A stretch of DNA of 64,000 nucleotides from a virus. How positions within the stretch are numbered: position 1 is the stretch's first letter; the number at the start of each line of letters is the position of its first letter. The notes beneath the pieces were generated by a model. The model had not been told where the DNA came from, made no database searches, and saw only the letters and a list, made by a program, of their open reading frames with translations. A program made the translations under genes and the position numbers. Of the stretch, positions 19,852-29,851 are shown piece after piece. The DNA lies in IMG/VR virus record IMGVR_UViG_3300027782_004428, positions 1-64,000 of that record. The stretch is one strand, 5' to 3'.

Positions 19852-21060
19852 ATGGCCACCATTGAAGAACAACAAAAACTCATTGAAGTTTTGAAATTTA
19901 CTCCAAGAACTTACAAAGTCAGTATGTGGGGCTATGGTGGCGAAAAAGTCATGGGCACAGTAGAACGCGATGTATGGGACTACTGCATGGAGAACCAAGT
20001 TGATCTTTCTGAAATTGCCTGGAGCGATGAAGAAACTGTGCAAGATGACATGAACCTTGATGTGGACCGGTTGCCATTCCCTCCAGGCTCCTGGTATGAA
20101 TGTGATGACATGGCACATGTCAATGGCGTTAGCCGCAGTGCCGGTACGCTACAGATCGAGGACGAGAACGGTACAGTCGTATTTGAAAAGAGATTAGAAG
20201 ATATGGATGGAGGCAGTGACGATGTTCCTGAATGGTCTTGCAATGACGAAGCATGGATTGGCAGTAAGCCCGAGGGTACCGTGGTGTTTATTGGTAGCAG
20301 TAACGAAAAAGGCACATTCTTCGAAGGCAATATTGAACTTACACAACCCTTTGACATTACCAAACTAACTCTGGGTTACGATGACATTGACGGTGAGGAA
20401 CTGGTCAACAGCGTGACCTATGATGATGAAGACATTGATAACTTCGGCGGTAGCACAGACGGTAAGAGTTCAGACTTTGGAATGTATCTTGTAATGGATA
20501 ACAATACCTGGGAAACCTATGCACCCGAAGAGAAAGACTGGGGCCATCCTCCGCATGGATCAAGTCCCAGCACCTGGGAAAAGTCTAAAACATTTAAGTT
20601 CAATAAAGTCCAACCCACACTGCCTGGCTATTACAGTTGTACATGGAAGCACTTCGGCACAACATATGGCACAGCATACTGGGATGGCACACAGTTTGGC
20701 GAATGGGAATACGGCAAGTTCAATCCTATCACAGGAGAGATTGTGACTTGGTCAGGATACAACTGGGACACCGGTTCGTGGGTTAACCAACCACCAGAAC
20801 CTGTAGATATTGCGTGTGACAATAAAAAATGTGGTTGGGTAGGCAAGAGTGAGGATCGTCGCACTGACGATGACTACAACGATCACTGCCCTGAATGCGA
20901 CGGCACAGAGTTTACTTGGATTGACTATGACCCGGACTCAGCAGTTGGCCGAAAGAATCGTGCTAAGTACTGCGAAGAGTGGGATCCTGCGATTGCAATG
21001 GATCGAATCGTGGCATCAGCAGATGAAGAACCGGCCAAGTGGCCAGCAACAAGACCTTAA
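19852..21060 (+). CDS. acidic hypothetical protein with C-terminal zinc ribbon
   Basis: CDNKKC...CPEC; GAGGA RBS. Confidence 0.7.
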   Translation: MATIEEQQKLIEVLKFTPRTYKVSMWGYGGEKVMGTVERDVWDYCMENQVDLSEIAWSDEETVQDDMNLDVDRLPFPPGSWYECDDMAHVNGVSRSAGTLQIEDENGTVVFEKRLEDMDGGSDDVPEWSCNDEAWIGSKPEGTVVFIGSSNEKGTFFEGNIELTQPFDITKLTLGYDDIDGEELVNSVTYDDEDIDNFGGSTDGKSSDFGMYLVMDNNTWETYAPEEKDWGHPPHGSSPSTWEKSKTFKFNKVQPTLPGYYSCTWKHFGTTYGTAYWDGTQFGEWEYGKFNPITGEIVTWSGYNWDTGSWVNQPPEPVDIACDNKKCGWVGKSEDRRTDDDYNDHCPECDGTEFTWIDYDPDSAVGRKNRAKYCEEWDPAIAMDRIVASADEEPAKWPATRP

Positions 21061-21071
21061 AGGAGAAAACT

Positions 21072-21761
21072 ATGAATGATACACTTGTATTTAATGATGA
21101 ACAATACCGTTCAGCAGAACAAATCAACTCGGCCATGGGCCGTGTTTACGGACACATGAGCCTAGCAGTTGTTGTGTCAATGCTGATCAGTTACTGGGTA
21201 GGCACCACACCCGAGTTGCTACAGTTCTTTTTTACCGGCATAATGAAATGGATTGTGATCTTTGCACCCTTGGCAGCCATATTTGGTGTGAGCATGGTAC
21301 TGGGTAATAACCCAAGTAAACCCATGGCACAGTTATGCCTACATGGCTTTGCAGCCTTGATGGGCTTGAGTTTCTCAATGATCTTTGCTGTGTTTGCCAT
21401 GGGATCAATTGTGAGTGCCTTTATGGGTGCGGCCATCTTGTTTGGTGTAATGAGTGGATATGGCTACTTTACCAAACGCAGTCTTGACAGCATGGGCAAG
21501 TTCATGATTGTAGGTTTGATCGCCATCTGTATTGCCAGTATTGTGAACATCTTTATTGGCAGCACCGTGATGCAGATGGTGATCTCTGCACTGGCTATCA
21601 TAATCTTCCTTGGTCTCACTGCATATGACACACAACAGATCCGTGAAGAACTCAGTGTAGAAACTACTGATGCCGCAGAAGTGCGTGGTGCGTTGACCTT
21701 GTACATGGACTTTATCAACTTGTTCTTGAATTTGTTACAACTGTTTGGCGATAGAAAATAA
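21072..21761 (+). CDS. yccA: Bax inhibitor-1/YccA family membrane protein
   Basis: multiple TM helices, TAYDTQQI and ALTLYMDFINLF; AGGAG RBS. Confidence 0.9.
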   Translation: MNDTLVFNDEQYRSAEQINSAMGRVYGHMSLAVVVSMLISYWVGTTPELLQFFFTGIMKWIVIFAPLAAIFGVSMVLGNNPSKPMAQLCLHGFAALMGLSFSMIFAVFAMGSIVSAFMGAAILFGVMSGYGYFTKRSLDSMGKFMIVGLIAICIASIVNIFIGSTVMQMVISALAIIIFLGLTAYDTQQIREELSVETTDAAEVRGALTLYMDFINLFLNLLQLFGDRK

Positions 21762-21789
21762 ACATTACTGATTTTAGAACAACAATAAG

Positions 21790-21818
21790 TTGACACGCCA
21801 CCACTTTCTTTGTATAAT
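21790..21818 (+). promoter_or_regulatory. consensus sigma70 promoter
   Basis: TTGACA-17-TATAAT. Confidence 0.9.
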
Positions 21819-21824
21819 GTACAT

Positions 21825-21990
21825 GTGCATGAGCAAGGAGATTGGTGGCGATCTAATGGTATGAGCGGGGTGATCGATTCGCCCGGGCCCGACATAACCG
21901 TGGCAGGTAGATATAAGATCCACTAGGTTGAGACACTGTCCAAGATCTAGCAATAGGTCAAAACCGGCTGGTACCCGGTGTATGCTTCAG
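21825..21990 (+). ncRNA. candidate structured RNA (multi-stem; ncRNA or long 5' leader), family unknown
   Basis: 200-nt gap after strong promoter; five consecutive arms closed by 5'/3' pairing, GCAA tetraloop, T-loop-like heptaloop. Confidence 0.55.
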
Positions 21991-22018
21991 TTGGAAATCA
22001 CAGTGAAAGGAAGTTTAA

Positions 22019-22336
22019 ATGTCTGTTAAAATAGAAGCCTCTGATTCCATGCTTCCGTCCCTTGACTCTCTTAAAACAACGGCTTTGCCCATGCACAAAT
22101 TATATTTCGAATTGTCAAGTGTGGACACATGGTACACTATCATGCGAGAAGCACGAGCACAGTTTGGTAAAAACTGGCGTAGTCAAGCACATGTCAAACG
22201 ACGACTAGAACATGCCGGCCTTTGGCGACTAGGCAACCCTGCAGAACGGGTGTGGTTTGAAGTGCCTGATCCCAAGTTTGGAACCTGGATAGCAATTAAA
22301 CATGCTGTTAGACAGGTTGACCCCACCGGTAAATAA
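22019..22336 (+). CDS. hypothetical protein
   Basis: AAGGAAG RBS. Confidence 0.7.
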   Translation: MSVKIEASDSMLPSLDSLKTTALPMHKLYFELSSVDTWYTIMREARAQFGKNWRSQAHVKRRLEHAGLWRLGNPAERVWFEVPDPKFGTWIAIKHAVRQVDPTGK

Positions 22337-22342
22337 TACTCT

Positions 22343-23896
22343 ATGATATTTGGTTTCAGCATCCTGTTCACTGCAATCTTGTTGAGTGCAGTGGCCGCTT
22401 ACTACTCAGTAGCAGGCCTTACTGCCATCTTCAGTGCGGCAACTATTCCTGTGATTATCATGGGCGGTAGCCTGGAACTGGGCAAGATTGTGGCCACTGT
22501 TTGGTTGCACAACAACTGGAAACGTGCTGGATTTTTGTTCAAAGCATATCTAGTGCCAGCGGTAATGTTCTTGATGCTGTTGACCTCAATGGGTATCTTT
22601 GGATACCTTTCCAAAGCACACTCAGATCAAAGTCTAGTATCAGGCGACAGCGTTGCAAAGGTGGCAATCTATGATGAAAAGATCAAAATATCTCGTGACA
22701 ATATTGATGCCAACCGCAAAGCACTTAAACAGATGGATGAGGCAGTGGACCAAGTTATGGGCCGAAGCCAAGATGAAAAAGGTGCCGACAAAGCAGTTGC
22801 AATACGAAGAGGCCAGCAAAAAGAACGGGCTAGGATACTTGTTGACATTGAAACCGAACAGAAAAAAATTACTAGCCTTAATGAAGAGCGGGCACCACTA
22901 GCGGCCGAGTTTCGTAAGGTTGAGTCGGAAGTTGGTCCAATCAAATACATTGCGGCCTTGATCTATGGAGATAACCCTGACTCAAATGTACTAGAACGTG
23001 CGGTACGTCTTGTTATTATCATGATTGTGCTGGTGTTCGATCCACTGGCACTTACATTGATTCTGGCCGCCAACAAACAATTCCAATGGGCTAGAGAAGG
23101 CACAGGTGGCTTCATACATGACGAGCCCCGGTACGAGCCCGACGATGGTCCACTAACTCAAGACCAAATTGATCAACTTGATAAATCGGTACAAGCATTC
23201 CGAACAAAGCCGCCCGATGATCCTATACCTTGCCACAAGTGTGGCACTTCTTTAGTTGATGCACCGGGCATTGGTTTGTTCTGTCCCAACCGAGAATGTG
23301 ATGTTTTTGACAATGTCAAAGGTGAAGAACCCATTACCTTTACAACACCAATTAAGTACCAGTTCTTGGATGAACATCACGAACCTGATATTCATGTGTA
23401 TGACAATGAACGTCTGGTATCAAAGTTTGATAAAATGCAGGAAGTTGAGCCGCCAGACGAAGAACTCAACGATGATGATGCACTCAGAGCCGCTGTCAGA
23501 CAATGGAAAGCCGCCAATCCCGAAGATACGTTGAAGAATCAGCGTTTCAAATTGATCAGAGGAGAAATTTCCGAATTACCTTGGATGGGGCTATTGGCTG
23601 ATAATGAATCGAGAAAAGAAATAAACAGTGGCTTTGGCACACAGTTTCCACTACATGCTGAACGAGGAGATACCTTTGTAAGAGTTGACCGTCTACCCAG
23701 TGTGGTCTATAAGTACAATGGTAACGACTGGATGGAAGTTAACAAAAATCTAACAGACAGTTATACTTACGATATTGCTTATATTGATCACCTGATAGAA
23801 CGCATTACATCTGGCGAATATGATGTTGAACTATTGAGTGAGACTGAGCGTGAGCAAGTAACACAACGTTTACAACAACAAAATACAAACACATGA
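22343..23896 (+). CDS. conserved phage membrane protein with coiled coil and zinc ribbon
   Basis: N-terminal TM helices, coiled coil, VFDPLA TM, CHKC..CPNREC. Confidence 0.75.
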   Translation: MIFGFSILFTAILLSAVAAYYSVAGLTAIFSAATIPVIIMGGSLELGKIVATVWLHNNWKRAGFLFKAYLVPAVMFLMLLTSMGIFGYLSKAHSDQSLVSGDSVAKVAIYDEKIKISRDNIDANRKALKQMDEAVDQVMGRSQDEKGADKAVAIRRGQQKERARILVDIETEQKKITSLNEERAPLAAEFRKVESEVGPIKYIAALIYGDNPDSNVLERAVRLVIIMIVLVFDPLALTLILAANKQFQWAREGTGGFIHDEPRYEPDDGPLTQDQIDQLDKSVQAFRTKPPDDPIPCHKCGTSLVDAPGIGLFCPNRECDVFDNVKGEEPITFTTPIKYQFLDEHHEPDIHVYDNERLVSKFDKMQEVEPPDEELNDDDALRAAVRQWKAANPEDTLKNQRFKLIRGEISELPWMGLLADNESRKEINSGFGTQFPLHAERGDTFVRVDRLPSVVYKYNGNDWMEVNKNLTDSYTYDIAYIDHLIERITSGEYDVELLSETEREQVTQRLQQQNTNT

Positions 23897-25107
23897 AATC
23901 AACAGACCCAATCACAACTTGTAGTTTTTGTGCAAAACACAAAGACGCCGTGGCTAAATTAATAGTAGGAGAAGATGTTTCCATTTGCAATGAGTGTGTG
24001 GAATTATGCGAGACATTACTCAGAGATGAAAACATAATTAAACCCGTTGAGATGACTACATTGGATCCCGAAGATATTAAAAATCATCTGGATCAATATG
24101 TTATTGGACAAGATCGAGCCAAACAAGTACTGAGTGTGGCAGTGGTCAACCACTACAAACGCATTACCAATCCTAACCCTGATATAGAAATTGAAAAGTG
24201 CAACATACTCATGCTTGGCCCAACAGGATCAGGCAAAACACTACTGGCCAAGACAGTGGCACGTTATTTAGATGTGCCGTTTGTGATTGCAGATGCCACA
24301 AGTCTTACCGAAGCTGGTTATGTGGGAGACGATGTTGAGAGCTTGATCAGTCGTTTGTTTGCAGCCGCAGGCGGCGACATTGCTAAAACTCAGCGTGGCA
24401 TTGTATTCATTGACGAAATTGACAAGATCAGCCGTCGTAGTGAAAGTGCCAGTATAACTCGAGATGTGTCTGGCGAAGGTGTACAGCAGGCCTTGCTTAA
24501 ACTGGTAGAAGGTACCAAGTGCAGAGTCACTCCCACAGGCAATCGCAAGCATCCTTCAGGTGACATGATTGAGATTGACACCACCAACATCTTGTTTATC
24601 GCTGGCGGTGCATTTGTGGGACTTGATAACGTGGTCAAGAATCGTGTGCAAGGAACTAGCATTGGGTTCAGTGCCAAAATCAAAGATGACACAGAAACAC
24701 ACTTAGATCAAGTCACACCAGAAGATCTGATCAAGTTTGGTATGATTCCAGAGTTTGTGGGTCGTTTCCCCAGCTGGGTAGCACTCAATGAACTCAGCAA
24801 AGAAGATTTAATTCGTATTTTGCTAGATGTCAAGCACAGTTATATTGCACAATACTCTTGGTTGTTTGAGCAGGACAAAGTAGAACTAGAATTCTCACCT
24901 GAGGCTTTAGAAATGATCGCAGATCGCACTATTTTAAACAAAACTGGGGCCAGAGGATTGCACAGTGAATTAGAGCGTGTGCTATTGCCACACATGTTCT
25001 ATTTGGCCAGTTATCGCAAGCAAGGAATAAACCGTGTATATATTGACACAGATCAGGTAAATACTCCTACCGAACTAAAGGAAGCGAATGGAAAAGCTAA
25101 GAGGTAG
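23893..25107 (+). CDS. clpX: ATP-dependent Clp protease ATPase ClpX
   Basis: CSFC..CNEC zinc domain, [21 protein letters not shown] and IGF loops. Confidence 0.97.
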
Positions 25108-25312
25108 ATCAGTACTAGTCACAGACGGCAACGTAGACAAAGCTCTACGTAAATTTAAAAAGAAAATTCAAACATCGGGCATTTTAGACGATGTGCGAGC
25201 CAAAGAATTCTACGAAAAACCCACAACCGAACGCAAACGCAAAAAGTCAGCGGCTGCAAATCGCTGGCGCAAAAAACTAGCCGAACAGGCTTTGCCAAAG
25301 AAACTTTACTAA
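25088..25312 (+). CDS. rpsU: 30S ribosomal protein bS21
   Basis: [12 protein letters not shown]....[13 protein letters not shown]. Confidence 0.92.
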
Positions 25313-25340
25313 GTCAATTTTTTTCTGTATAATAAATAAC

Positions 25341-25402
25341 AATGTAGTGCCCATGGTGGGGCTACATTACAAGTCATCTTGCTTATATAAAGGAGAAAAC
25401 AA
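25341..25402 (+). promoter_or_regulatory. ROSE-like RNA thermometer in hsp20 leader
   Basis: 5' hairpin AATGTAG/CTACATT, then TCTTGCTT pairing with AAGGAGA with bulged G. Confidence 0.65.
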
Positions 25403-25855
25403 ATGACAAAAACTCTCACCCTTCGCTCTTTCGATATTCCCGCGCTTCACAAATTTGGTATCGGTTTCGATAACATGTTTGATGATCTCATGCGTGTGAG
25501 TACTCAACAATCCACTTCAAACTATCCACCTTACAACATTGTGCAAATAAATGAAGATGAGTACATGATCAGTCTTGCTGTGGCTGGATTTGGACTCGAT
25601 AATCTTTCAGTTACCAAGGACAAAAAGTTCTTGATTATTGAAGGCAAAGAGTATCAACCCGATAGCGAAAACATCGTGCCAAACTATTTGCACAAAGGTA
25701 TTAGCAATAGAGATTTCCGTAGAGAATTTCAACTTGCGGACCATGTGGAAATCAGCAATGCTCACCTTGAACTTGGTATTCTAAGTGTTCACTTGCGACG
25801 TGAAGTGCCAGAAGATGCCAAGCCAAAGACTATTGCTATCACATACACTTCGTAA
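25403..25855 (+). CDS. small heat shock protein (Hsp20/IbpA-like)
   Basis: NYPPYNI, LAVAGF, YLHKGIS.R.F.R.F.LA. Confidence 0.95.
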   Translation: MTKTLTLRSFDIPALHKFGIGFDNMFDDLMRVSTQQSTSNYPPYNIVQINEDEYMISLAVAGFGLDNLSVTKDKKFLIIEGKEYQPDSENIVPNYLHKGISNRDFRREFQLADHVEISNAHLELGILSVHLRREVPEDAKPKTIAITYTS

Positions 25856-25912
25856 TATAATAGTGTAAATACAGTAGGGGCACAATGTCCCTACTGCTAA
25901 TAAGGAACTGAA

Positions 25913-26224
25913 ATGGCACAAAGCGACACAAAAACACGTATCAAACCACTAGAGGCCATCAAAGAGCCGCCTTTGTATCGTGTGGTATATCTCAATGACA
26001 ACCAAACCACATATGAATTTGTAGTCGAAACCTTGATTGAATACTTTGATTACACCGCGGAAACCGCAGAACAAATCACAATAGACATTCACGATGCAGG
26101 TTCGGCTGTGGTGGCAGTGTTGCCATACGAAATTGCCGAACAAAAAGGTGTAGAAGTAACCATGCTGGCACGAGCACAAAGTTATCCACTGCAAATCAAA
26201 CTTGAACCAGAGATTGTGGGCTAA
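25913..26224 (+). CDS. clpS: N-degron adaptor ClpS
   Basis: PPLYRVVYLNDNQTTYEFVV, IH..G.AVV, YEIAEQK, YPL. Confidence 0.92.
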   Translation: MAQSDTKTRIKPLEAIKEPPLYRVVYLNDNQTTYEFVVETLIEYFDYTAETAEQITIDIHDAGSAVVAVLPYEIAEQKGVEVTMLARAQSYPLQIKLEPEIVG

Positions 26225-28612: not shown

Positions 28613-29851
28613 ATGAAAAAAATTGGATTTATTGGTATCGGCAAACTAGGACTTGACTGCGCGGAAGTTATGGCAGAGAAGCACGAAGTCAGAGGCTACG
28701 ATATTTACCCGCGCACTAGCGACTCAGTAAAAGTTTGCGATATTGATGAATTGGTCAATGAAAGCGAATGGATTTTTATTGCTGTGCCTACCCCACATGC
28801 TGAAGGTTATGATGGGTCTGTGCCCAGCTCACATATGGAGCCCAGAGACTTTGGTCATGATGCTGTGATCAGTGCTATCAACAGTGTCAACAAGTACGCA
28901 AAATCACCAAAGAAGGTTGTGTTAATCTCTACAGTATTACCTGGCACAACACGTCGCAAGTTTTATCCACTGTTAGACAAACAACATCAGTTCTTGTACA
29001 ATCCTTATTTGATTGCCATGGGATCAGTCAAGTGGGACATGGTCAATCCTGAGATGGTCATGATTGGTACCGAAGATGGCAACCCCAATGCACTAGCCGG
29101 CGAGTTAATTGACCTGTACAAGACCATGATGGTAAATGATCCTCGCTATGAAATTGGCACCTGGGACGAATGCGAAGCTATCAAGATCTTCTACAACACA
29201 TTCATTTCTGCCAAAGTTGGCCTGGTCAACATGATTCAAGACTTTGCACTACGTATTGGTCATATCAACGTTGACGTTGTGACAGATGCTTTGGCACGCT
29301 CAACCATGCGTATCATGGGACCTAAGTACATGACAGCAGGCATGGGCGATGCAGGCGCTTGCCACCCACGTGACAACATTGCACTGCGTTGGTTGGCCAA
29401 AGAATATGACATTGGTTATGACTTGTTTGACACAGTGATGCATGCTCGTGAAATCCAAGCCAAGAACCTTGCCATGTTCCTGGTTGAACAGGCCAAACAA
29501 CACAGCATGAGCATTGTGATTCACGGCAAGGCCTACAAACCTGATGTTGAATATTGTATTGGATCATACTCTACGCTGGTAGGACACTATGTTAAACAAG
29601 CAGGACATGATGTGAGATATCTTGACCCATTGGCAGATGATCCTGCTGACGTTATTTCAGAATTGGCTGGTCCTGTGGTCATCCTGTGGGCACACAATCG
29701 CAAGATCACTTATGAGTACACCGGTGATCAACTTGACACATTGCCGTATTGCCCAATTCCACATGGTAGTGTGGTGGTTGATCCATGGCGTAAACTGCCA
29801 CAGATTGAGAACTTGACCGTGGTACATTATGGTAACACACGCAATTCTTAA
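28613..29851 (+). CDS. ugd: UDP-glucose/GDP-mannose dehydrogenase family protein
   Basis: GIGKLG Rossmann, IAVPTP, STVLPGT, E.IK...N, GACHPRD catalytic Cys. Confidence 0.88.
   Translation: MKKIGFIGIGKLGLDCAEVMAEKHEVRGYDIYPRTSDSVKVCDIDELVNESEWIFIAVPTPHAEGYDGSVPSSHMEPRDFGHDAVISAINSVNKYAKSPKKVVLISTVLPGTTRRKFYPLLDKQHQFLYNPYLIAMGSVKWDMVNPEMVMIGTEDGNPNALAGELIDLYKTMMVNDPRYEIGTWDECEAIKIFYNTFISAKVGLVNMIQDFALRIGHINVDVVTDALARSTMRIMGPKYMTAGMGDAGACHPRDNIALRWLAKEYDIGYDLFDTVMHAREIQAKNLAMFLVEQAKQHSMSIVIHGKAYKPDVEYCIGSYSTLVGHYVKQAGHDVRYLDPLADDPADVISELAGPVVILWAHNRKITYEYTGDQLDTLPYCPIPHGSVVVDPWRKLPQIENLTVVHYGNTRNS

Follow-up and report, generated by a model that had tools for sequence, protein, structure and literature searches.

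The leader of a phage gene for a 105-amino-acid (aa) protein, together with the first 26 codons of that gene, forms a conserved RNA fold of ~272 nucleotides (nt), which is real, strand-specific and begins at the predicted transcription start (+1). The gene lies in a 64,000-nt stretch of DNA (the window), which is part of the 89,999-nt IMG/VR virus record IMGVR_UViG_3300027782_004428 of an uncultured lake phage (26% complete by CheckV). A sequence-only reading of this DNA had drawn a discrete unit of ~165 nt at 21825-21990, closed by a stem GAGCA/TGCTT. The letters that it quoted do occur where it placed them; the element itself is ~100 nt longer than the unit drawn, with 21825-21990 making up its 5' two-thirds. 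We consider the fold a candidate translational operator at the head of an operon that carries the genes for ClpX, ribosomal protein S21, Hsp20 and ClpS.

Extent and architecture of the leader fold

The 105-aa protein, used as a query, retrieved 60 IMG/VR loci with amino-acid identities of 38-97%, and nhmmer with the intergenic DNA of the window matched 46 of these 60. The leader DNA is better conserved than the protein that follows it, with 85.5% nucleotide versus 71% amino-acid identity at locus L020 and 71% versus 46% at L044. Three alignments were made: A1, a MAFFT alignment of 36 distinct leaders; A2, a covariance-model alignment of leaders (65 matches, 57 distinct) joined to a codon alignment of the gene start; and A3, a MAFFT alignment of 53 distinct sequences over 21825-22111, on which the pairs of the full model were counted. 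A covariance model built from A1, here called R1, spans 21825-22021 and scores 200.7 bits on that segment, with no other match in the window or elsewhere in the 89,999-nt record.

Covariation within these alignments is far above chance. On A1, a leader model of 35 pairs is paired in 95.4% of cells, versus 30.4-43.0% when the partners are slid; 19 of the 35 pairs changed on both sides, and none of 500 column shuffles reached the observed value on any measure. RNAalifold applied to A1 paired ATCTA (21851-55) with TAGAT (21908-12) and did not recover two of the stems drawn earlier. A blind scan for stacked, complementary and covarying columns ranked the same ATCTA/TAGAT pairing first and placed second a pairing of GCAAGG (21833-38) with CUUUGC (22083-88), the latter inside the gene; it also recovered three further helices of the final model (H3, the in-gene hairpin and the helix between the Shine-Dalgarno sequence, SD, and codon 2). 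That model comprises 58 pairs in 10 helices and is 93.3% paired on A3, versus 27.6-40.8% with slid partners; two-sided changes are seen in 33 pairs and 335 cells, and no shuffle in 500 reached the observed value on four measures, whereas 20 of 500 did so for the measure 'further pair types'. Many conserved G-U pairs assign the fold to the + strand, in keeping with the RNA-level selection that the sequence-only reading had proposed. The elements of the fold, in 5' to 3' order of their first positions, are as follows:

21825..22096, + strand: whole conserved fold, ~272 nt, leader plus first 26 codons; 58 pairs, 10 helices
21825..21838, + strand: 5' strand of the closing helix H0 (GUGCAUG, A, GCAAGG), pairing with 22083-22096
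21851..21912, + strand: arm P2 (AUCUA/UAGAU, AUGGU/ACCGU, AUG/CAU, CGGG/CCCG), helices 2-4, with a variable tip
21898..21905, + strand: near-invariant junction CCGUGGCA, invariant or near-invariant alignment columns (A1, A3)
21930..21939, + strand: core strand GAGA+CACUGU; GAGA pairs with 22067-70 (codons 17-18), CACUGU with 22000-05
21944..21959, + strand: hairpin P5 (GAUCUA-GCAA-UAGGUC), 96.1% paired, two-sided change in 5 of 6 pairs
21964..21978, + strand: hairpin P6 (CCGG-CUGGUAC-CCGG), 85.6% paired, longer in other clades
21980..21985, + strand: invariant GUAUGC; possible partners are the 5' GCAUG (forming local P1) and GGCA 21902-05
22000..22005, + strand: 3' strand of helix H4 (ACAGUG), 1-3 nt before the SD
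22007..22024, + strand: translation initiation region; SD AAGGA, GGA 22009-11 paired with codon 2 (UCU 22022-24), AUG 22019-21 looped
22025..22066, + strand: in-gene hairpin, GUUAA (codons 3-4) with UUGAC (codons 15-16), strands 22025-29 and 22062-66
22083..22096, + strand: 3' strand of H0 (CUUUGC, C, CAUGCAC; codons 22-26), inside the 105-aa gene

The model is fully nested. H0 closes the whole. Inside it H3 and H4 stack: to one side they enclose P5 and P6, to the other the SD hairpin together with the in-gene hairpin. With the SD, the AUG and the first codons enclosed by helices, the ribosome-binding site is buried in a conserved RNA body. H0 consists of GUGCAUG (21825-31) with CAUGCAC (22090-96) and GCAAGG (21833-38) with CUUUGC (22083-88); its 13 pairs are 93.9% paired on A3, six of them changed on both sides, and one shows five pair types (GC:18, UG:16, CG:12, UA:2, AU:1). 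At the base of P2 all five pairs of AUCUA (21851-55) with UAGAU (21908-12) changed on both sides, and the tip hairpin of this arm is deleted in the clade of L040. Three short helices are 100% paired on A3: H3 (GAGA 21930-33 with UCUC 22067-70), in which two pairs vary (AU:30/CG:23 and AU:49/GC:4), the three-pair helix between the SD and codon 2 (AU:38/UA:8/GU:6), and the in-gene hairpin, in which three of five pairs changed on both sides. Many conserved unpaired bases surround the helices, including CCGUGGCA, AAUGG, CAAAACC and GUAUGC.

Parts of the original drawing survive this comparison (all pair counts here are from the 53 distinct sequences). The stem ATGGT/ACCGT is 92.1% paired and belongs to P2, and the hairpins GATCTA-GCAA-TAGGTC and CCGG/CCGG are P5 and P6 with the values listed above; the GNRA loop of P5 is not a conserved feature, as shorter hairpins with other loops take its place. 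The hairpin GGGTG/CGCCC, described as T-loop-like, is 82.7% paired and only partly supported; it is not a conserved T-loop, since it is deleted in the L040 clade. Pair counts reject three stems, namely the closing GAGCA/TGCTT (71.2%), AGATTG/CGATCT (75.6%) and GGCAG/CTGTC (79.2%, with only 43.4% for its last pair). The pairings that replace them are ATCTA 21851-55 with TAGAT 21908-12, GCAAGG 21833-38 with CTTTGC 22083-88, and CACTGT 21934-39 with ACAGTG 22000-05. The statement that no plus-strand open reading frame (ORF) exceeds 11 codons is correct for ATG starts but not for TTG starts, which open ORFs of 38 aa (21810-21926) and 33 aa (21928-22029); 1-nt insertions or deletions among close relatives break both.

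The part of the gene that belongs to the fold also shows constraint at the codon level. Counted only where a sequence carries the majority amino acid, normalised synonymous codon entropy averages 0.27 for codons 2-26 (n = 23) and 0.63 for codons 27-105 (n = 68; Mann-Whitney, one-sided p = 1.4e-5). The third base of codon 24 (alignment column 294, before Met-25) is C in all 53 sequences, and the codon of His-26 is CAC in 51 of 52.

Closure of the fold and a divergent subfamily

The 5' end of the transcript has more than one possible partner. In our first model the closing stem was a local helix, P1, formed by GCAUG (21827-31) and UAUGC (21981-85). This helix is 98.9% paired, yet no pair in it varies on both sides and its three unpaired cells lack compensation; as it never covaries and is absent in the divergent subfamily described below, it was demoted to a possible alternative conformer. 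The same GCAUG can pair with 22090-94 in the gene, and compensatory change supports this second partner alone: where the 5' strand of L094 has C in place of U, the compensating A-to-G lies in the gene strand (CG:1, columns 6/295) and not in the local partner. A further candidate for GUAUGC, in which all bases are invariant, pairs GGCA 21902-05 with UGCU 21983-86. Three (U/C)AUGC elements complementary to the 5' GCAUG are present in total, at 21981-21985 in the leader, 22048-22052 (Met-11) and 22090-22094 (Met-25), and the copies other than 22090-22094 might mark folding intermediates.

Seven loci (L039, L047, L049, L050, L054, L056 and L058) form a divergent subfamily with longer leaders of ~295-310 nt, which carry an additional segment between the core and the start codon. 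R1 detects them weakly (~27 bits for L039 and L050), and they were recognised by shared sequence blocks. RNAalifold on these seven leaders alone predicted H0, H3, H4, hairpins resembling P5 and P6, and the in-gene hairpin de novo, in a fold of 59 pairs of which 22 show compensatory change. The helices are built from different letters: H0 pairs a 5' GCAGU with ACUGC in the gene strand, H3 appears as GUGG/CCAC, GCGG/CCGC or GAGG/CCUC, and H4 as CACCA/UGGUG, CACCU/AGGUG or CACCG/CGGUG. In the subfamily the SD is base-paired within a GGAGAUCUC mini-hairpin that precedes the AUG, and the GGA/UCU mini-helix is kept. Its counterpart of GUAUGC cannot pair with the subfamily's own 5' end. Since the subfamily keeps H0 but not P1, P1 shows no covariation, and the change in L094 is compensated in the gene strand, we regard the closure that embraces the gene as the conserved architecture.

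Distribution, gene context and expression

The RNA was also sought independently of the protein. A DNA pattern made from three invariant blocks, with CCGUGGCA as anchor, occurs in at least 119 IMG/VR stretches, 80 of which were listed. Among the matches listed, R1 confirms 54 of 79 new viral loci, and 26 of these 54 are on contigs outside the results of the protein search. In 24 of the 26 an ORF of 91-111 aa, homologous to the 105-aa protein, begins at the 3' end of the RNA; the other two are cut by the end of the contig. The same pattern, run against 185,579 bacterial and archaeal species with one genome apiece, gave at least 120 stretches, and among the matches listed none of 80 is matched by R1. 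The RNA family is phage-restricted, which bears out its earlier description as phage-borne. The tentative link to the 105-aa gene is likewise upheld, as a homologue starts at the 3' end of the RNA at 24 of 24 assessable loci and its first 26 codons lie inside the fold. The gene for the 105-aa protein is followed by that for a 517-aa protein in all 18 loci in which gene order was checked, with ClpX next in 17 of 18 and a variable upstream neighbour, so that the RNA has a single gene context in both collections (24/24 and 18/18).

Of the protein-found loci, 59 are assessable for a leader (L057 has no upstream DNA and was left out), and 56 of them have one, 49 of the main family and seven of the variant type. 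The three leaderless homologues (L045, L046 and L060, without an R1 match at E <= 1) begin 10-26 residues later in the protein. That the leader and the first codons are absent together fits a unit that acts in cis. These loci keep the order of the 105-aa and 517-aa genes with ClpX, except that the L060 locus has no ClpX match. L046 has a promoter of its own (TTGACA-17-TAGTAT) just a few bases before the ATG.

No match to the 105-aa protein was found in Pfam, PHROG or the PDB by profile search, and it belongs to no recognisable nucleic-acid-binding family. It has 860 homologues (E <= 0.001; clusters at 90% identity); the 120 homologues listed contain no Pfam domain and, where they have a source name, it is 'hypothetical protein', and the ESM Atlas gave unnamed viral clusters only. 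The protein is basic, with 16 K+R versus 11 D+E, a residue count that is not itself evidence of binding. Several database homologues (e.g., P0030, P0044 and P0064) are called at 158-160 aa rather than ~105, which may come from gene callers extending the ORF upstream through the leader.

Searches for known RNA families were negative, as the sequence-only reading had anticipated. The 4227 models of Rfam 15 gave no match in the whole window at gathering thresholds, and ARAGORN found no gene for a tRNA or tmRNA there. A permissive Rfam scan of 21700-22100 returned four matches only (three microRNA models and opuB, E 0.31-9.9), all far below threshold. The microRNA-like matches are explained by a perfect 8-nt inverted repeat, on which their alignments fall: CGCCACCA at 21797-21804 in the promoter spacer and TGGTGGCG at 21843-21850 in the transcript. 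This promoter-spanning repeat is present in the closest relatives only and is probably not part of the family. A blastn search of 21000-23000 against 50,697 GenBank phage records gave no match, and a description of the leader RNA was not found by full-text literature searching or in Rfam 15. Passages of PMC10690425 report 8,495 candidate RNAs, each 29-151 nt long and drawn from intergenic regions in IMG/VR, and fragments of this leader may figure among them.

Around the leader, the following features were identified in the window:

21039-21761, upstream neighbour: gene for a Bax-inhibitor-1/YccA-family membrane protein (Pfam PF01027, E 1.9e-53)
21790..21818, + strand: sigma70-type promoter; TTGACA 21790-21795, 17-nt spacer, TATAAT 21813-21818; 12/12 match
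22019..22336, + strand: 105-aa gene, first of the operon, without Pfam, PHROG or PDB match
22343..26224, + strand: gene run directly after the 105-aa gene, starting with the gene for the 517-aa protein
23893-25107, + strand: ClpX gene (Pfam)
25088-25312, + strand: gene for ribosomal protein S21 (Pfam), its start overlapping the end of ClpX by 20 nt
25403-25855, + strand: Hsp20 gene (Pfam)
25913-26224, + strand: ClpS gene (Pfam)

The leader occupies the non-coding gap 21762-22018 between the membrane protein gene and the 105-aa ORF. The promoter is as perfect as first described, and its consensus letters place the predicted transcript start at ~21825. A promoter of the form TTGACN-17/18-TAnnnT is present in 48 of 52 distinct upstream sequences, and its distance to the start of the RNA model is 4-6 nt in 47 of the 52 and 16 nt in one more (L076). 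Among relatives the -35 and -10 hexamers are kept and the letters of the spacer differ. No terminator-like site lies within 21762-22018, that is, none between the promoter and the AUG, which argues against an attenuator based on an intrinsic terminator. Downstream, the six genes from the 105-aa gene through the 517-aa gene, ClpX, S21 and Hsp20 to ClpS form one run with tight or overlapping junctions. The phage-encoded Bax-inhibitor-1/YccA-family gene is not kept beside the leader in other phages for which gene order was compared. Further along the window, at 28613-29851, lies a gene of the UDP-glucose/GDP-mannose dehydrogenase family (Pfam PF03721 and PF00984). S21-encoding lake phages of Bacteroidetes are treated in passages of PMC9723584, where S21 stands beside structural genes and without ClpX; they differ in gene context from the S21/ClpX operon described here.

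Sequence words from 21700-22400 turned up in 19 studies (22 listed runs), with two runs containing at least half of them. Seventeen of the runs are recorded as RNA and derive from lake, freshwater and river metatranscriptomes. Contigs from four RNA-library runs (X1 to X4, from four studies) cover the leader. In X2 a contig at 21837-22042, with one other letter, has a depth of 53 where flanking contigs have 2-8; in X4 contigs at 21958-22018 and 21989-22087 have depths of 336 and 231 where the flanks have about 9; in X1 and X3 the depths of leader and flanking contigs are comparable. Contig depth cannot rank the parts of a gene, RNA libraries can hold DNA, and a conserved leader recruits the contigs of relatives, so that these libraries show that the leader is present in them and hint only weakly at a stable fragment of it. 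The X4 contig 21989-22087 runs into sequencing-adapter letters at 22087, within the 3' strand of H0, and this junction could be a frequent fragment end.

Proposed function of the leader and its alternatives

We propose, with a confidence somewhat above even, that the leader fold serves as an operator in cis, governing translation initiation at the 105-aa gene and probably, by coupling, at the genes that follow. A consensus sigma70 promoter would transcribe the fold at 21825-22096, and the first 14 nt of the predicted transcript pair with codons 22-26 to close the whole structure. Of the conserved core strand at 21930-39, one part pairs with the 6 nt that precede the SD and the other with codons 17-18; the SD and codon 2 pair around a small loop that contains the AUG, and codons 3-4 pair with codons 15-16. 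Such a fold may set the timing of translation of the first gene, and tight or overlapping junctions would probably extend this timing to the 517-aa, ClpX and S21 genes. The leader would probably work either through a trans-acting factor that binds it, with a protein such as the gene's own basic 105-aa product as the most plausible candidate, or through slow folding. The SD and start codon do lie within conserved structure, flanked by the covarying H4, H3 and H0, as in autogenous operators, and the design is gene-specific and embedded in coding sequence, which makes it resemble an autogenous operator more than a metabolite riboswitch.

Known systems offer partial parallels. The operators of the E. 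coli alpha operon (rpsM), bound by S4, and of rpsO, bound by S15, are compact folds that contain the SD, the start and the first codons and act on initiation. The phage leader is like them (Alpha_RBS is RF00140) in being a multi-helix fold that includes these same elements, and unlike them in being about twice as large, in reaching 26 codons deep and in heading an operon where S21 is not the first gene; neither the Rfam 15 scan of the window nor the permissive scan of 21700-22100 gave an Alpha_RBS or rpsO-type match for it. In the E. coli rpoH thermosensor, the initiation region is paired to downstream coding sequence in the control of chaperones and proteases. Pairing of the initiation region with coding sequence and chaperone/protease genes in the operon recur here, whereas the invariant junctions and the covarying multi-branch core point to a defined tertiary structure and not to a stem that melts. 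The T4 gene 32 element is small, a pseudoknot with an unstructured tract after it, unlike the present case, in which ~58 pairs enclose the initiation region and the protein belongs to no recognisable nucleic-acid-binding family. According to the passages of PMC10690425 that deal with it, the gene 32 pseudoknot lies in the mRNA leader, 5' of the gene, is bound by the product of that gene and has no Rfam model; the two elements are alike in being phage mRNA leader structures directly 5' of a gene. With translational riboswitches of the SAM-II and preQ1 types the leader shares a 3' tail that pairs into the core beside the SD (H4), and it differs from them in its single gene context and its use of coding sequence, with no Rfam riboswitch model matching it.

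Several results weigh against the operator and the fold on which it is based. The sequences are related, so that the counts of covarying cells exceed the number of independent events. H4 (21934-39 with 22000-05) is 91.7% paired on A1 and only 88.7% on A3, the lower figure arising because MAFFT misaligns one clade. The minimum free energy (MFE) of 21825-21990 is -48.7 kcal/mol versus -48.9 +/- 4.1 for shuffles (z = 0.04), with z = 0.69 for the opposite strand and -0.42 for 21825-22098. An energy no better than that of shuffles had been named in the sequence-only reading as speaking against an RNA, yet it is uninformative beside covariation of this extent. For 21825-22098 the MFE and centroid structures do include H0, and the supported pairs alone amount to -47.2 kcal/mol with H0 and -29.0 without it in the window sequence, so that H0 contributes ~18 kcal/mol; however, enforcing the supported pairs gives -67.0 kcal/mol versus an unconstrained MFE of -78.0, and nearest-neighbour rules thus do not favour the fold. 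GUAUGC can pair with the 5' GCAUG in every member of the main family, which makes a second conformer possible. The leader-only contigs that are much deeper than their flanks in X2 and X4 would equally fit a stable free RNA, and the first base of one X1 contig, 21798, precedes the predicted transcript start.

Such contigs, confined to the leader in two of the four metatranscriptome runs, together with the one that stops at 22087 and passes into adapter letters and a size and complexity typical of free structured RNAs, could point to a stable 5' fragment (~21825-22096) that accumulates apart from the mRNA and has a role in trans, for example that of a decoy or scaffold. We find this distinctly unlikely: depth is unable to rank parts of a gene when contigs of relatives are summed and the conserved leader recruits more of them, no terminator follows the fold, the SD and AUG lie inside it, and the leaderless homologues also lose their first codons, which fits a cis unit. 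A riboswitch for a small molecule or ion would have the conserved core as its ligand pocket, and the ligand would choose between local P1 and the long-range helix and thereby gate the ribosome-binding site. The combination of covarying helices with invariant junction bases is that of an aptamer core; many invariant unpaired bases surround the helices, the pairings among 21827-31, 21980-85 and 22090-94 are three and mutually exclusive, and a helix abuts the SD as in translational riboswitches. However, one gene context was found among the loci checked, where several functionally related contexts would be expected of a riboswitch, and the gene's own coding sequence takes part in the structure, which is unusual for a metabolite sensor. 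As local P1 lacks covariation and is not kept in the divergent subfamily, and as the operon combines proteostasis and ribosomal proteins with no metabolic theme, we rate a riboswitch as unlikely.

The presence of ClpX, Hsp20 and ClpS in the operon and the pairing of the initiation region with coding sequence, by an SD helix of merely three pairs, are also features of an rpoH-type RNA thermometer or stress sensor, in which melting of the initiation region would turn on a chaperone/protease operon. Such an explanation seems highly improbable for a fold whose invariant unpaired junctions and ~58 conserved pairs are unexpected in a simple melting device and whose H0 helix is worth ~18 kcal/mol in the window sequence. 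A constitutive element without a switch, serving as a 5' stabiliser against RNases or as a platform that presents the SD/AUG loop, would agree with a fold whose first base lies at most a few nt from the predicted 5' end and which leaves the AUG looped, and base pairing at the 5' end is known to stabilise transcripts. One simple hairpin at the 5' end would be enough for that purpose, and ten helices, invariant junctions and constrained codons exceed the needs of stabilisation, so that we hold this role to be very unlikely. Finally, the fold could be an autonomous sensor of host state, responding to a small molecule or to ribosomes with or without phage S21, in which a P1/H0 switch times the operon; to this we give a modest chance, well short of even. 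The first 26 codons would then exist mainly to build the RNA, a view prompted by the leaderless homologues, which lack those codons. If true, the genes timed by this switch would remodel proteolysis in the host (ClpX, ClpS, Hsp20) as well as the ribosome (S21).

Irrespective of whether the translational operator or one of these alternatives applies, large intricate bacterial or phage RNAs outside the catalogued families are rare, and in this one ~26 codons are integral to a covarying RNA, with visible constraint on synonymous sites and on the N-terminus of the protein. The family is abundant, given the 860 homologues of the protein and the parts of the stretch present in 17 RNA-recorded runs. 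With a consensus sigma70 promoter and an ordinary SD the leader should be amenable to standard assays in E. coli-type systems. It heads the operon by which giant freshwater phages bring their own ClpX, ClpS, Hsp20 and S21, and understanding it would show how and when the phage deploys these takeover functions.

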